From an uncultured delta proteobacterium (lineage in GTDB: Bacteria > Desulfobacterota > Zymogenia > Zymogenales > Zymogenaceae), in NCBI GenBank assembly GCA_963735595.1, contig CAVTLK010000002.1, positions 640,001-704,000 of the forward strand: DNA of 64,000 nt. Reading direction: 5' to 3'. The position numbers and the translations under genes are program-made. A model generated the notes under the pieces. It did no database searches, was not told the DNA's origin, and saw only the letters and a program-made list of their open reading frames with translations. Position 1 is the stretch's first letter; every line of letters begins with the position of its first letter. Positions 2,200 through 42,826 of this stretch are shown here, piece after piece.

Positions 2200-3116
2200 A
2201 TGCGGATAGTCCGCTCATTGTTTGCCGTCTTTATCGTGCTTTTAGCGTCCGTCTATTCGTCCGCCGGCGGCTATACCGTCGTCGACCAGGCTGGGCGGAC
2301 CGTGACCGTCCCCGTAAATCCCACCAGGATCATATCCCTTGCCCCCAACATCACCGAGATACTCTTTGCCGTCGGCGCGGGTGATGACGATCGTCGGGGT
2401 TTCCGAATTCTCCGACTACCCGCCCGAGGCCGCCGGGCTGCCCCAGGTGGGCAGCTACATCAAGCCGAATCTCGAAGCGATCATCGCGCTAAAGCCCGAC
2501 CTCGTGATCGCCACGGCCGACGGGGAAAAACGGGTCGAGATAGACCGGCTGGCCTCCCTCGGCGTTGCGGTCTATATCATCAACCCCGGGACGATCGCCG
2601 GGGTCGTCTCGACGGTCCGCGAGATCGGGCGGCTTTCGGGGCATGAAGAAGCAGGCCGAAGAGAAGGCGCGGGAGATGGAGGAGGTCGTGGACCGGATAA
2701 GGGCCCGCGTCGCCGGCCTTCCGCAGGTGACGGCGCTGTTGGTGCTCAACACGAATCCCCTCATTACCGTAAACGGCAATACCTTCCAGGACGAGATGAT
2801 CAGGGCGGCGGGTGGCAATAAACATCGCCACGGCCGAACTCATCAGGTACCCGACCCTCACGTACGAAGAGGTGGTCGTCCGGGCGCCCGAGTGTCATCA
2901 TCATGACGACGATGTCGCCCGATGAGGATTACCGCTCCGTGGTTGCCGGGTGGCCGCGATTCACAACGGTGCCGGCGGTCAGGAGCGGGAGAATATTCGT
3001 GGTCGATTCGGATATCGTGGACCGTCCCTCGCCGCGGATGGTCGAGGGCCTGGAGGCGCTGGCGCGGCTGTTTCACCCGGAGGCCTTCAGGAAGACACGC
3101 GGGAGGGGGGCGGTGA
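2200..3116 (+). CDS. btuF: Cobalamin ABC transporter substrate-binding protein, frameshifted
   Basis: RIISLAPNITEILFAVG, PNLEAIIALKPDLVI and DIVDRPSPRMVEGLE spread over several frames, downstream of a B12 riboswitch. Confidence 0.85.
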
Positions 3117-35390: not shown

Positions 35391-35589
35391 TATCGGTATT
35401 CCTTTAGATAATAATGACTGCGGCGGCCGGTGAGGCGGCGAGTGGGCGAAGGCCACCAATATCCGTATTGTAGTATATCTGCGTACAAAAGGAAATCCTA
35501 ATGTGGATGAGCAGCGGTTTTTTCGGCTTACCGATTGCCGGGCCGGCATTCCTATTGACAATTCGTGCGTTCTGATTTAGGATTTAGCC

Positions 35590-35988
35590 ATGAAGATACT
35601 ACAGAACAAACGGGGGGCTTCCGGCCTCGGCATTCTCGGCTACATCATCGCAGTAATCCTCATCCTCTGGGGATTGATCAATCTCTATTCCCTGGCGGCC
35701 CCCGGCGCGGGCAACCCCACCGGGAGGGTTATCATCGGTCTCGTGTTGATAGCCATCGGCGGCGGGCTCCTCTTCTTCATCCCGAAGTGGGAATCCCGGC
35801 GGCCCCAGCAGATAGAGATGACCCAGAAGATAGACCTGGCGGGAAACGTCAACACCGCGAAACTAAAATGCCAGAACTGCGGGGCCGATCTGGACAAAGA
35901 CAGTGTGGCGGTGAGGGCGGGGGGTATCTTCGTCAACTGCCCCTACTGCAAGAGCGCATACCAGATCACCGAGGAGCCCAAGTGGTAG
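35590..35988 (+). CDS. Two-TM protein with C-terminal zinc ribbon
   Basis: Two hydrophobic helices and CQNC...CPYC. Confidence 0.8.
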   Translation: MKILQNKRGASGLGILGYIIAVILILWGLINLYSLAAPGAGNPTGRVIIGLVLIAIGGGLLFFIPKWESRRPQQIEMTQKIDLAGNVNTAKLKCQNCGADLDKDSVAVRAGGIFVNCPYCKSAYQITEEPKW

Positions 35989-36141: not shown

Positions 36142-37744
36142 GTGAATATAAAGAGGGTACTTCGTGTCGTCGCCCTGATATCGGCGGCCGTTGCTTTTTC
36201 CCGTCGCCCCCTCGTTTGCCCAGACCTACTATTTCTCCGTCCCGTCCAACCACTCGGACGTCTTCATCAACCAGGACGGGTCGATCACCATCTCCTACGC
36301 GATCACCTTCGCCAATGATTCCGGGGCTTCGCCCATAGACGTCGTCGACATCGGCCTGCCCAACGACAACTACGACCTGTCCACCGCAAAGGCCTGGATC
36401 GGCGATCAGCCGATCACCGAGATCTACAAATCGACCTACATCGATACGGGTGTGGAGGTGCGCCTGGGGTCCCAGAGCATCATGCCGGGCGCGACCGGCA
36501 CCCTGTACTTCCAGATCGACAACCCCCACATGGTCTACACCGACGACGAGAAGCCGGACTATGCCTCGGTGGAGTTCTCGCCCACCTGGTACGGCTCGGA
36601 TTATACCTACGGCACGACAGACGTCATGGTCAATTTCCACTTTCCCGCCGGCGTAACGGCCGAAGAGACCATCTATCATTACCGACAGTACGACACCTAT
36701 TCGTTCGACAAGGACGGGCGCATCGTCTTTACCTTCCGGGAACCCGCGGGGAGCCCGTCGTCCCAATATATGTACGGCGTCTCGTTTCCCGCGAAATACG
36801 TCACGACCGTCTTCGAGCCGTATCGCCCGCCCTTTATCCTCAAGGTGCTCGAGTTTTTCGTTGAGCATATCTTCCTCTTCTTTTTCCTAGGGATGATCGG
36901 GTTCATCGTTCTCAATCTCTTTCGCAAACGGCAGCGCAAGATGCAGTACATGCCGGCAAACGTGGCCATCGAAGGGGTGGGGATCAAGCGGGGCCTCACG
37001 GCGCCGGAGGCGGCCCTCCTCACGGATACGCCTTTGGCCAAGGTCGTCACGATGATCCTGTTCGGCCTCCTTAAAAAGGGAATCGTCCGCGTGGAGACGG
37101 TGCCGACACCCAAGGTCTTCAAGCTTGACGGCGCCGGGAGCGAGGCGCTGCGGCCGTACGAAAAGGCCTTCCTGGCCTGCGTAAAGGCCGACGGCACGCT
37201 GGACACCGGACCGCTCAAGCCGGTCATGGTGGACATGATTAAGGAAACCAATAAGGCCCTCAAGGGGTTCTCCCGCGCAGAGACCACCGACTACTACCGC
37301 GCGATCGTCGATCTGGCCTGGAAGCACGTGAAGGCCGCCAACACCCCGGAGCTGCTCGGGCAGGAGTGGGACAAACAGCTCGAGTGGACAATGATGGATA
37401 AGGACTACGACAAAAGGATGGAAGATACCTTCGACGGCCGCGACGTGGTGATGCCGAGGTGGTACGGGAACTACTCCGGGCCGGCTACGCCGGCCGAGTG
37501 CGGCGGGCGGCACAGTTTGAGATGCCCGGGGCCAAGCTCGCCAACGATATGGTCATCCTCGGTGGAGGGTTTCTCCGGTAAACTGATAACCAACGTCGAG
37601 AGCTTCGTGACCGGGGTATCGCGGGTGACCAACCCGCCGCCACAGACCAGCAGCGGCAGGAGCTCCGGCGGCGGCGGGGGCGGATGCGCCTGTGCATGCG
37701 CCTGTGCCGGATGTGCGTGCGCCTGTGCAGGGGGAGGGAGATAG
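36142..37744 (+). CDS. Exported/membrane protein (DUF2207-like architecture) with C-terminal Gly linker and Cys-Ala repeat tail
   Basis: Signal peptide (frameshift near 36190), beta-rich extracytoplasmic domain (DVFINQDGSITISYAITF), a TM segment, GLTAPEAA, and ending GGGGGGCACACACAGCACACAGGGR*. Confidence 0.8.
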
Positions 37745-37747
37745 ACC

Positions 37748-39109
37748 ATGAAGATGTTTGACTCGATTGCCGGGCTCTTTACCAGGGAAAAACCGCTCGG
37801 TGCAGGCGTCTACCACCGCCGGGTAACCGGCGAGGACGGAAACAACTATCGGCTCCACCTGCGGGTGGAAGAGGGGGGCGCCGGGATACTCTCGATCAAC
37901 GCCGCCAAGATCCTCCACCTCAACCCGACTGCGGCGGAGCACGCCAAGCTCATCATCGAGGGCATACCGCGGGAGCAGGCCGTCAAAGAGATCACGAGGC
38001 GGTACCGGGTCGGCACGAAACAGGCCGCCGCCGACTATGACAAGCTCATGGACGTCGTCCATGCCCTCTCCTCAACCGACGACGTCTGCCCCATCTCATA
38101 TCTGGACGTCTCCCGCATCGAGCCCTTTTCCACCCCGGTGAGCGCCCCGTACCGGATGGACCTCGCCCTCACGTACCGGTGCGACAACGGCTGCGGCCAC
38201 TGCTACGTGAGCAGGGACCGCAAGGTCGCGGAGATGGATACCGCGTCCTGGAAACGGGTTATCGACCGTCTCTGGGAGATCGGCATCTACCACGTCTCGT
38301 TTACCGGAGGGGAGGCAACGCAGAGAGACGACCTGGCCCGGCTCGTGGCCCATACCCAGGACGTCGGGATGGTCTCGGGGCTGCTGACCAACGGGAGGAG
38401 GCTTTCGGACAAAAAATTCCTCAAGACCCTCGTGGACGAGGGCATCGACTATTTCCAGGTCACGCTCGAATCGGCCGACAGGTCGATCCACAACGCGATG
38501 GTCGGGACCGACGGCTGGGACCAGACCGTCGCGGGCATAAAAAACGCGGCCTCGACGGCGCTCTACACCATCACCAACACCACCATTACCCGGCATAACA
38601 TCAAAACGCTTTCCAAGACCGTCGATTTCATCGCGGGGCTGGGCGTCAACGCCTTTGCCATGAACGGCATCATCTACAGCGGCGAGGCCAAGTCGGGTAA
38701 AGACGCCGTCACCGAGAAAGAGCTCGAAACGGCGCTGCGGGAGGTGTCCGACGCGGCCGCGAGAAACAACCTGCGCTTTATCTGGTACACCCCGACCCAG
38801 TACTGCAAGCTGGACCCGATGGACCTTTCCATCGGGATCAAGCAGTGCACGGCCGGCAAGTTCAACATGCTCATCGAGCCGGACGGGACGGTGCTCCCCT
38901 GCCAGAGCTACTTTGAGCCGGTGGGAAACATCCTGAAGGACGACTGGAAGGCGATCTGGAACCACCCGCTCCTGGTATCGTTGAGGAACCGGGATTTCGT
39001 GATGGAAAAGTGCCACACCTGCGAGAAGCTCGATGTCTGCGGCGGCGGCTGCCCGCTGGAGCTGCAGAAAGACAGCTACTGCTGCCCGGACAGCCTGAGC
39101 AACCCGTAG
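37748..39109 (+). CDS. Radical SAM/SPASM protein with N-terminal PqqD-like (RRE) domain
   Basis: LNPTAAE..KLI..G...EQAVKEITRRY.V...QA..D (PqqD-like), CDNGCGHC, FTGGE, and SPASM CTAG...PDGTVLPC...CHTC..LDVCGGGCP. Confidence 0.92.
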   Translation: MKMFDSIAGLFTREKPLGAGVYHRRVTGEDGNNYRLHLRVEEGGAGILSINAAKILHLNPTAAEHAKLIIEGIPREQAVKEITRRYRVGTKQAAADYDKLMDVVHALSSTDDVCPISYLDVSRIEPFSTPVSAPYRMDLALTYRCDNGCGHCYVSRDRKVAEMDTASWKRVIDRLWEIGIYHVSFTGGEATQRDDLARLVAHTQDVGMVSGLLTNGRRLSDKKFLKTLVDEGIDYFQVTLESADRSIHNAMVGTDGWDQTVAGIKNAASTALYTITNTTITRHNIKTLSKTVDFIAGLGVNAFAMNGIIYSGEAKSGKDAVTEKELETALREVSDAAARNNLRFIWYTPTQYCKLDPMDLSIGIKQCTAGKFNMLIEPDGTVLPCQSYFEPVGNILKDDWKAIWNHPLLVSLRNRDFVMEKCHTCEKLDVCGGGCPLELQKDSYCCPDSLSNP

Positions 39110-39245
39110 GCGATTCGAAAGGGACCGTGCCCGTCCGGGGTTTCCCAGCGAAGACGAATAAAGCCGAAAAATTACTAAAGCCGCCCGGAAGGTGGGCGGC
39201 TTTATCGTCTGTTTTACCTGATAATCCAGGGCCACGGGGACCCGG

Positions 39246-39667: not shown

Positions 39668-40428
39668 ATGGCGAACGTCACGGAAGATCGGGAGCTTTCC
39701 TACCTCGGCCTCCAGGCCGGCTGGACAAGGGCCATGCGCGTCCATCTCTACCGCAGGATCGCGCTTATGGCCCGCCGGCGCATCCTTGACATCGGGTGCG
39801 CCGATGGATTGATAACCGCCGAGATCGCGGCGCGGACCCGGGGAGAGGTCATCGGAATCGATATCCGCCCCGAACGGGTCGGCGAGGCCCGCAGGAACCA
39901 CCCGGACATCGACTTTCGGGCGGCCGACGCCCATGAGCTTCCGTTTGACGACGGGGCGTTTGACGCGGTAATCACCAACTTCACCCTGATGTGGACGGAG
40001 CGCCCCGGCCGGGCGATGGCCGAGGCCGCGAGGGTCCTGAAAAGCGGGGGGGCGTTCCTCGCGTCGGGCGAGCCCGATTACGGCGGCAGGATCGACGAGC
40101 CGGGGTCCCTCTCGGCGCTTACCGGGGCCTGGGCCGAATCAATCGGGGCCGACGGGGGCGACCCCTTCTTCGGGCGGCGGCTGAAGGGCCTCCTTGCCGG
40201 ATCGGGCCTTCGGTCGGTGGAGGTCGGGGTAATACCGTCGGTATGGGAGCCATCGCCGGGCGATGAGCTTGAGGCGTACCTGGATTGTCTGAGGTATTTG
40301 TTTTACGGCCGGGTCCCCGGGGGGGGCTTGACATAGACGAGATTATCAAGCGCGAGCGGCAGGCCGCCCGCTCCGGGGCGCGCCTGGTCTTCCTGCCGAT
40401 CTTCTGGGGGATCGGGGAAAAGCCGTGA
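39668..40428 (+). CDS. Class I SAM-dependent methyltransferase, frameshifted in a G-run near 40325
   Basis: ILDIGCADG, ADAHELPFDDGAFD and RVLKSGG. Confidence 0.85.
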
Positions 40429-40500
40429 AAAGCGATCGCGCCGCCGCGCCCGGCCGGAACTCTCCCGTCATGGTGTCCCGTCCGGCGGGATACAAACCCG

Positions 40501-42826
40501 TCAATCTGCCCTGTCCGTCAGTCTGGCGGGCCTTTCCGGTTGTTTCCTGCGGTTTTTTCTCGGCAGGAACGTCACAAGCCCTGCCGGCAGGAGAAACAGG
40601 TCGCCGAAGATCGCCGTGATCATCGTAATCCCCGAAAGGAGGCCGAAATACGTCGTCGGCCTGAAGCTCGCAAACAACAGGCACCAGAAGCCCAGCACGA
40701 GGGTGAGCGACGTGATGACCGCGGCCCTGCCGGTCGTCCTGAACGTGGTGGCGATCGCCTCCTCGTGGGAGGCGCCCGCCCGTACCTCGTGCCGGAAGCG
40801 GCTGAGGAAATGGATCGTGTCGTCCACCGCGATACCCGTGGCCACCGAGGCGATCATCACCGTTGCGGTATCGAGGTTTATCCCGAACAGGCCCATCGCC
40901 CCCATCGTCATCGCCACGGGGATGATATTGGGGATGATGGAAATCAGCCCCAGACGGACGGAGCGGAGCTGGAGGGCCAGGATGAAAAAGATCACCAGAA
41001 ACGACGTGGTGAACGAGGATATCTGGCTCTGGATTATGTAATCGACCATGTGGACATAGAGCGGTATTATGCCGGTGACGCGCCCCGTCAGCCCCTCGGG
41101 GAGGTTTGCCGAAAAGTAGTCGTCGAACTTCTTGATGAGCCGCTTGGAGGTATTGGAGGTCAGACCTCCCGCCGCGCACGCTGACCCGCAGCTCGGAGGC
41201 GTCGAAGTTGACGAAGTAGTCCAGCTCCCCTTCCTGGGAGGTCTCGTAGAGGAGGAGGAGCTGCGCGACGCCCTCCCGCGAGTCGGGGATGGAGTAACGC
41301 TCCGGGTCGTTGTTGAAGAACGCCATGTTCAGCCGCTTAATAAGATCGGTGGCGGCAACCGAGGTGGAGACGTTGGGATCGGTCAGGACAAAGCGCTGGA
41401 ATTTCTCGACTGCAACGAGCGTCCGGGGGTCGTGGGCGCTGCCCGGCTCCCCCGCGATAACCACCTCAACCGGCGAAATATGCCCGAAGTTCTTCTCGAT
41501 AAAACCGTAGGCGTAGCGCAGCGGCTGGCCCTTTTTGAGATAGTCCAGGTTTTGCGTTTCGACCGTGATCCTGGTGATAAAAAAGACCGAGACGGCAAAG
41601 AGGAGCGCGCCGACGATAAGGATAGGCACCGGGTGCCTCAGGTCGAAACGGCAGATAGCGGCGGTGAGCCGGTCGATGATGCCGCCGGCGCGGTGGGCTT
41701 TCGCCCGCGGCTTAGGCCTCGGCATCAGGCTCAGCGCGATCGGGACAAACGTGACGTTGAGGATATAGGCAATGGAGAGCCCCAGCCCGGAAAAAAGGCC
41801 GATCTCGCGCAGGGGAACGATCTTGGCAAAGAGAAATGAGGAAAACCCGACGATGGTCGTTATGGCGGTCATCAGGCATGGCGTCCCCAACAGGCCGATT
41901 GTCTCAACGACAGCGGCCCTCCGATCCATACCCGCACCGATATCGTCCAGGTAGTGGCTGGTGATGTGGATGCTGTCCGATACGCCGATGACCATGACGA
42001 GGGGGGGCACCATCGTGGTGATCAGGCTCATGGTAAAGCCGAGGGCGTTGTATATCCCCATCGAGATGATGACGCTGGAGGCCATCGAAAGGGTGGATAG
42101 GATCGACGTCGACCAGCGACCCATCAGGAAATACAGGACAAAGATGTTAAGGAAGATGGTCAGGGGAATAAAGACGTTGAGATCCCGGAAGGTGAGGGCG
42201 TTCATGTCCACGTTGAGGACGGGGATGCCGGCGACGTAAAGGGTATCGCCCCACAACGTTTCGTATTTCTCCGCGACCGCCCGGACCTCGCCCACGATAC
42301 GGGGCCGCTCCTGGTCCATGGAGCCGGCCTGTTCAAGCCGCGCGGTGATGAGGGCGGTTGTGGCGTCCTCCGAAATCAGCGTCCCGATAAAAAGCGGGTT
42401 ACTGAAGACGCGCGTTCTGAGCTCGGCTAACTCCTTGTCGGACCGGGGGATTTCACCGGTTAGCTTTTCGATTACGATGCCGTCCGTTGTCCCCCAGACA
42501 TCGACCGAATCGGTAATGCTGGCGACCCGCGAGACCCCGTCGATCTTCGCCAGGTCGGTCCCGATGTCGCGGATGATCTCGAGGTCGCGCGTATTGAAAA
42601 CGCCCCGCTCGTCCTTAAGAGCGATCACGACGAACTCGTCGCCCCCGAATGTCTCCTCGAACCGGTCATAGTCGGCAAGGTTCGGATCGTCGCTGACGAA
42701 ATAGATGCGGACGGCGTTGTTGATCCGCATGTCCCTGGCTTCGTGGATCGAGAAAGCCAGGATGACGATAAAGGCCGCCAGGATCGGCCAGCGCCACGCG
42801 AGCACCAGCTCGGCGAATTTCTTCAT
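40501..42826 (-). CDS. MMPL/RND-superfamily exporter, frameshifted near 41150
   Basis: Two TM bundles with IGVSDSIH and GIAVDDTIH. Confidence 0.88.

Follow-up and report, generated by a model that had tools for sequence, protein, structure and literature searches.

A conserved Cys-Ala tail on a membrane protein as the candidate substrate of a co-inherited radical SAM enzyme

What does an enzyme built like a peptide maturase act on when the gene beside it encodes a large membrane protein? The question is raised by a locus in a 64,000-nucleotide stretch of an uncultured delta proteobacterium of the Zymogenaceae (contig CAVTLK010000002.1, positions 640,001 to 704,000; hereafter the window). There, a gene for a membrane protein ending in alternating cysteine and alanine (the carrier) is followed, 3 nt after its stop, by a gene for an enzyme with a RiPP (a peptide made by the ribosome and modified after translation) recognition element (RRE), a radical S-adenosylmethionine (SAM) barrel and a SPASM domain. 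An earlier note on this DNA had proposed that the two form a RiPP-like system for modifying a protein. By comparing tail, carrier and enzyme across genomes, we find a system that is real, tightly co-inherited and uncharacterised, in which the cytoplasmic tail is a likely substrate of the enzyme.

The tail and its carrier

The pair lies in the window as follows.

36142..37744, + strand: gene for the carrier membrane protein, with three frameshifts as assembled; about 533-535 aa in intact homologs
37685..37744, + strand: Cys-Ala tail CACACACAGCACACAGGGR* of the carrier, the putative modified core, predicted to be disordered (pLDDT <50)
37748..39109, + strand: gene for the RRE-radical SAM-SPASM enzyme, 453 aa, recognized by domain profiles and motifs

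The tail peptide is under selection. Among loci found through the enzyme, a set unbiased for the tail, 58 identical decapeptides CACACAGGGR are encoded by 55 DNA sequences, with all Gly and Arg codons in use and synonymous variation free, and mean column conservation across 109 sequences is 1.0 in the tail versus 0.63 in the folded domains of the carrier. The same decapeptide ends every one of the best 120 of 2188 carrier homologs (7999 scored candidates), the window protein included, although that count is biased because the ranking itself included the tail. Both points made about the tail in the earlier note hold: it ends a single-pass membrane protein with a signal peptide, and the repeat is maintained as protein rather than as a DNA microsatellite. 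In the window, the terminal GGGR codons (37730-37750) are also the purine-rich ribosome-binding region just 5' of the enzyme ATG, which could make the tail an artefact of that site or of a DNA repeat; this explanation is refuted by the 55 DNA sequences behind 58 identical decapeptides, and the same tail is kept where the enzyme gene is elsewhere.

The tail is modular, with two blocks carrying six, seven or eight Cys; a three-block form with ten Cys occurs in 9 of 80 loci anchored on the enzyme. In these ten-Cys tails (L147, L149, L150, L162, L166, L169, L173, L175 and L181; L and G numbers are our handles for loci and genomes), His or Ser stands between the blocks, and an Atlas cluster of carriers similar to this type is mostly from Bathyarchaeota. 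The core sits at the end of a protein of ~535 aa, unlike the short leader-core precursors of sactipeptides. The tail loci contain no conserved short precursor open reading frame (ORF) and no conserved internal start, internal starts being scattered over 15 of 114 carriers, in agreement with the earlier note's failure to see a separate precursor nearby.

Conservation extends over the whole carrier, which comprises a signal peptide, an extracytoplasmic beta-sandwich, one transmembrane (TM) helix, a cytoplasmic alpha/beta domain, an LPG...TNPP segment, a Gly/Ser linker and the tail; by the predicted topology, the cytoplasmic domain and the disordered tail face the cell interior. For the ectodomain, the only likeness is to the N-terminal domain of M1 peptidases, which is non-catalytic. 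For DUF2207, named in the earlier note, none of 22 carrier members scored above the gathering score of PF09972 or PF20990 (one variant reached 16.6 versus 24.4). The cytoplasmic part matches DUF2207_C clusters in the Atlas at TM 0.52-0.55, a weak fold likeness below the naming threshold, and one carrier homolog is named DUF2207 in UniRef. TIGR04222 gave 14.2 on the window carrier against a cut-off of 43, with faint similarity in 4 of the 22 members (best E 4.2e-6). Three loci hold two tails each, two with two full carriers (L190, L194) and one in which the first copy is cut by the contig end (L075), and carriers stand at two loci (L021, L058) of one Planctomycetota genome.

Co-inheritance of tail, carrier and enzyme

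A tail-pattern search of genome contigs returned at least 122 loci, 80 of them with flanks and 79 after removal of one duplicate; the enzyme-anchored set comprises 80 of 642 metagenome matches. Among the loci listed, tail-locus hosts span many Chloroflexota together with Hodarchaeota, Heimdallarchaeota, Promethearchaeota, Planctomycetota and Zixiibacteriota, and further include Coatesbacteria, Acidobacteriota, Aminicenantes, Sabulitectum and Clostridia. One host, Ornatilinea apprima (L044), is cultured. Clustering of ORFs in the tail loci yielded four recurrent families.

The tail is always on the carrier family (75 of 75 tail loci having at least 1.2 kb upstream), and an active enzyme lies within 67 of the 75 tail-anchored loci having at least 1.5 kb downstream. 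In the remaining eight (L002, L005, L021, L024, L038, L051, L068, L079) the active enzyme, with CxxxCxxC seen, is elsewhere in the genome, that of L021 being at L058, and in four of these eight split genomes a methyltransferase gene adjoins the displaced enzyme. Tail-bearing homologs nearly always come with the enzyme, either next to the tail or at another place in the genome. On this point, as on the RRE and on the missing short precursor, the interpretation in the earlier note withstood the checks that it had named. Approached from the enzyme, the tail is visible in 67 of 80 loci; nine of the 13 tailless loci have <700 nt upstream, and the methyltransferase is adjacent in 8 of the 13.

Whole genomes, related and incomplete as they are, give the same picture. 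Of 41 relatives, all of one family, 10 have enzyme, carrier and methyltransferase together and the other 31 have none of the three, and across 151 Chloroflexota genomes the enzyme and the tail pattern occur in the same 13, with the methyltransferase in those 13 plus one. That additional methyltransferase (G052:C206:6046-6777) is found without enzyme or tail pattern in a genome that may be incomplete. No protease, exporter, metal transport or metal resistance gene is conserved across the 79 tail loci.

The enzyme, its partners and its relatives

The N-terminus of the enzyme is an RRE of the PqqD fold, as first read from the sequence: it matches PF05402 (23.6 vs 23.4), has three strands and three helices, and aligns structurally with the N-domains of SuiB and SkfB. 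The radical SAM barrel (PF04055, 80.2 bits) carries the CxxxCxxC motif as invariant C145/149/152, and the SPASM domain (PF13186, 43.3 bits) has Cys at all seven positions in the window protein (367, 385, 422, 425, 431, 435, 445/446). The solved folds nearest the enzyme are RiPP maturases. Domain order and fold are those of SkfB, CteB, SuiB and PqqE at about 20-25% identity; those enzymes act on short peptides. The present homologs lack the seventh SPASM Cys in 45 of 54 cases and conserve extra Cys at 114 and 353. At the six catalytic-site positions defined in PMC10288494, placed here by motif and not by that paper's matrix, the enzyme has Y153-T186-L213(N)-T239-Q386-S387, five of which are invariant in 54 of 54 tail-anchored enzymes. 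By this placement it shares three identities with SkfB (Y-T-F-S-Q-L), two with StsB (Y-T-I-S-K-L) and none with CteB, PqqE or SuiB.

Named families stay well out of reach. The enzyme scores 81.8 against a curated cut-off of 625 for the StsB family NF045574 and 32.6 against 525 for TIGR04463 (rSAM_vs_C_rich, CrpC), and none of the best 25 of 69 NCBIfam matches, which include the PqqE, AlbA, SkfB, MftC and NirJ/AhbD equivalogs, reaches its cut-off, PqqE being highest at 137 versus 381. Judged by its sequence, the system would work like an RRE-radical SAM peptide maturase with a protein substrate, outside every named family tested.

The earlier note's inventory of the carrier and its adjoining enzyme stands, and it overlooked a methyltransferase gene, a zinc-ribbon gene and, in Chloroflexota, a dead paralog of the enzyme. 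The further features around the pair in the window are these.

35555..35583, + strand: sigma70-like promoter match TTGACA-17-TAGGAT, a consensus match only, directly upstream of the zinc-ribbon gene
35590..35988, + strand: zinc-ribbon gene, 132 aa, an accessory member with two TM helices, a CxxC...CxxC zinc ribbon and the C-terminus (E)EPKW
39176..39204, strand not given: terminator-like hairpin, 12 bp, which ends the three-gene unit and faces the convergent csaA
39246-39593, - strand: csaA, above the NCBIfam cut-off, between the enzyme and methyltransferase genes
39668..40428, + strand: class I SAM methyltransferase gene of its own family, a core member, with one frameshift near 40320 as assembled

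Zinc-ribbon, carrier and enzyme genes thus form a three-gene unit flanked by promoter-like and terminator-like sites. csaA takes the same interposed position in 5 of 9 relatives' loci and elsewhere is not a recurrent neighbour. The assembled frameshifts in the carrier (36191-37560), the methyltransferase (40320) and, apparently, an RND/MMPL-like neighbour (40346-42826) are probably assembly indels.

The methyltransferase gene is present in 33 of 62 tail loci having at least 4.5 kb downstream, and the best PDB match of its profile is LahSB, a RiPP C-terminal carboxyl methyltransferase. Because LahSB methylates peptide C-terminal carboxylates, such an activity would explain the fixed GGGR end of the tail. 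The zinc-ribbon gene precedes the carrier in 59 of 65 tail loci having at least 2.6 kb upstream, and all 65 homologous zinc-ribbon ORFs end in P[KQ]W.

A dead radical SAM paralog, which keeps the RRE and barrel and has lost CxxxCxxC and the SPASM Cys, occurs in 49 of 75 tail loci, mostly in Chloroflexota (for example, L001:4168-5313), and none was found in the source genome of the window; it is possibly a scaffold or heterodimer partner of the active enzyme. The tailed carrier of four Anaerolineales genomes (G046-G049) has only the dead paralog beside it; the sole active enzyme there has diverged (40-41% identity) and carries a conserved C-terminal GGGCSGCSGSCG extension of its own. This divergent enzyme (L078:1104-3733, L053, L220, L221) adjoins a paralog of the carrier with the cytoplasmic domain but neither ectodomain nor tail. 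The arrangement fits a split of the docking domain from the Cys core, and also a role of the tail as a metal ligand.

Among known systems, of which the cited papers were available in part, the hairpin sactipeptides StsA/StsB/StsC and BlaA/BlaB (PMC10288494) share with the locus an RRE-dependent radical SAM/SPASM enzyme and a CxCxC donor unit, and the catalytic-site profile, as placed by motif, looks similar, with Y-T at positions 1-2. In the StsA core, CxCxCx4GxGxG, the CxCxC unit donates three sactionines to form a Cys-Gly hairpin (PMC10288494). StsA, however, is a short peptide whose GxGxG acceptor block is separate from the Cys donors, whereas here the core ends a ~535-aa protein and CxCxC appears two or three times. 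Rows 3034-3036 of the supplement to PMC10288494 list three fragments (about 80-175 aa) with the present tail, beside RRE-radical SAM enzymes, as 'Other Uncharacterized' precursors in SSN group 40; they align as C-terminal fragments of the carrier, and precursors longer than 600 bp had been dropped when that paper's set was curated. The main-text sections examined contain no discussion of group 40 or of a membrane protein. Since the supplement lists it, the enzyme-tail pairing has already been recorded, as an entry in a table that treats it as a short peptide; no main-text account of the operon was found in the literature searched, the supplementary PDF of PMC10288494 lying outside that search.

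A precedent with a whole protein is CrpA/CrpC (TIGR04463) of Methanococcus voltae, in which CrpC puts thioethers on a 29-kDa protein: an RRE-radical SAM-SPASM enzyme, the type found here, acts on a full-size Cys-rich protein encoded alongside (PMC13692751). CrpA differs in its N-terminal leader domain, a 17-residue repeat present ten times and CxxQ/D motifs. The parts available describe neither a membrane anchor nor a methyltransferase, and three supplements of the same paper hold no match to CACACA, DUF2207 or Chloroflex. In QhpC/QhpD (per PMC13692751), an RRE radical SAM enzyme likewise crosslinks Cys of a protein subunit kept in a larger complex, but the links there are Cys-Asp/Glu and the subunit is small, with a leader at its N-terminus, and the present tail has no acidic acceptor. 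TIGR04222 proteins paired with MNIO enzymes (PMC12452194) are membrane proteins whose C-terminal tails are rich in Ser/Gly and contain Cys, and bioinformatics has led to the proposal that RiPP enzymes act on these proteins; there the enzymes are non-haem iron enzymes, the variable tails are predicted to be periplasmic and the enzyme is absent in a third of genomes, in contrast to the radical SAM enzyme, invariant and predicted cytoplasmic tail and near-perfect co-inheritance found here. Alike in architecture only is PspA-SamGHI (YdjGHI) of Bacillus subtilis, which combines a membrane zinc-finger protein, a membrane protein with an extracellular domain and a low-complexity segment, and an SPFH-zinc-ribbon protein; SamH has a TPM domain, the system has no modifying enzymes and homology to the present one is not shown (PMC13713150 and PMC11237479, as available). 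An SPFH gene is adjacent in 2 of 87 enzyme-centred loci and in no tail-anchored locus: in L149 (689-1654) and L173 (639-1604), an SPFH/Band-7 gene with a double zinc ribbon precedes the operon. The source genome of the window has an SPFH/Band-7-zinc-ribbon homolog on another contig (L219:4420-5571), followed by further zinc-ribbon genes in an arrangement resembling Bacillus samGHI.

A proposed maturation pathway and its alternatives

Sequence, domains, gene order, co-inheritance and selection on the peptide are established; binding, chemistry, the fate of the tail and its physiological role are proposed. The signal peptide would direct export of the carrier and one TM helix would anchor it, with the cytoplasmic domain and the tail predicted to stay inside. 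The RRE would dock on the carrier, probably at the conserved LPG...TNPP segment ahead of the Gly/Ser linker, and the 5'-deoxyadenosyl radical would take hydrogen from Ala or Gly of the tail, so that Cys thiols are joined to Ala/Gly carbons in a thioether ladder, most likely as S-to-Calpha hairpins like those of StsA. The methyltransferase might then methylate the product, conceivably at the free C-terminal carboxylate of ...GGGR. The modified tail probably remains attached, because no protease or exporter is conserved, and, within a membrane complex that includes the zinc-ribbon protein, would be a part that is rigid or binds metal. We consider it likely that the tail is the substrate, and give an even chance to the joint claim that it is the substrate and that the enzyme forms a thioether on the attached tail.

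Several points weigh against this proposal. The genomes behind the co-inheritance counts are not independent observations, co-inheritance cannot identify which partner is the substrate, and within four enzyme-anchored loci with 2.8-4 kb upstream (L134, L135, L138, L182) no carrier was seen. The methyltransferase match to LahSB is limited to the SAM-binding part (profile 28-132), and its lead over unrelated methyltransferases is slim (E 5.5e-22 versus 2.5e-19). Outside CxxxCxxC, the enzyme has eight conserved Cys (C114, C353, C367, C385, C422, C425, C431, C435), with C353 in 54 of 54 and the linker residue C114 in 50 of 54 enzymes, and the dead paralogs have lost these conserved non-catalytic Cys. 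Because there are eight, the ligands could suffice to fill both auxiliary clusters, a state found in SuiB and anSME, neither of which makes thioethers; CteB and SkfB, by contrast, have an open site (PMC6231123, as available). A thioether product is accordingly plausible rather than established. SuiB also ties for the best structural match, and the catalytic-site profile was read by motif and may share its Y and T with non-thioether SPASM enzymes.

These enzyme features bear on the possibility that the tail is the substrate of another chemistry, such as anSME-like Cys oxidation, desulfurisation, dehydrogenation, epimerisation of alternate residues or C-C links, with the methyltransferase acting on the product. 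One of the eight Cys lies just after the barrel as in SuiB, anSME is the fifth-best structural match, and the strict alternation of the tail would suit a processive reaction at every second residue. We nonetheless hold such chemistry to be a minority prospect, given a catalytic-site profile nearer SkfB and StsB, with no identity to SuiB or PqqE, and given that CxCxC is the proven sactionine donor of StsA (PMC10288494, as available). Should the tail instead remain unmodified and bind a metal, a metalloid or an Fe-S cluster, with enzyme and methyltransferase loading, building or methylating the bound item, the 6-10 Cys in modular CxCxC units, the His between units in variant tails and the GGGCSGCSGSCG extension on the only active enzyme of four Anaerolineales genomes would find a ready explanation. 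The methyltransferases match ArsM models too, albeit weakly at 54 versus 510 bits, far under the cut-off. This seems unlikely: the RRE, a peptide-binding domain, persists in the dead paralog too, the neighbourhood has no conserved gene for metal transport or resistance, and the invariant Ala and Gly would make better sense as acceptors than as spacers.

The substrate could also be another partner, with the Cys tail structural. The invariant P[KQ]W ends invite this thought, (E)EPKW being open to a Lys-Trp link or C-terminal decarboxylation, and the top fold match, SuiB, is a Lys-Trp crosslinker; it is improbable, as adjacent Lys and Trp would give a ring too short for SuiB-type chemistry, and of 5 tail-and-enzyme genomes checked, 3 gave no zinc-ribbon gene and a fourth gave a match without the PKW end (incomplete genomes). 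We attach little probability, finally, to an ordinary RiPP pathway in which the tail is crosslinked and then released as a free peptide, the membrane protein being an oversized leader. The supplement of PMC10288494, which scores tail fragments as sacti/ranthipeptide precursors, implicitly takes that view, and a flexible linker does lie upstream of the core, but protease and exporter genes are not conserved in the 79 loci, the ectodomain resembles only a non-catalytic part of M1 peptidases, and the carrier is conserved as a whole, without a conserved internal start and with no variable positions in its core.

Under the proposed maturation of the attached tail, the full picture, which we advance tentatively, would be a two-step pathway (a radical SAM ladder and a methyltransferase cap) that reaches from Chloroflexota and Desulfobacterota as far as Asgard archaea and in which an integral membrane protein has its cytoplasmic C-terminus matured, with the dead paralog as a partner in Chloroflexota and chemistry possibly unlike that of known sactisynthases. 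It would leave a permanent signalling or metal-binding tail on an envelope complex rather than a secreted peptide. Nearly all that is known of RiPP-type radical enzymes concerns short peptides. Few protein substrates have been proven (QhpC, CrpA), and the literature searched turned up none that is an integral membrane protein. In a 19-residue tail that bacteria and archaea both conserve, there is now one sharply testable candidate substrate for two orphan families, of RRE-radical SAM enzymes and of methyltransferases, and for a remote DUF2207-like family of membrane proteins. The system is tractable, as its soluble parts are expressible in E. coli and a cultured host, O. apprima, exists, and the unusual Cys set together with the dead paralog could mean new chemistry.

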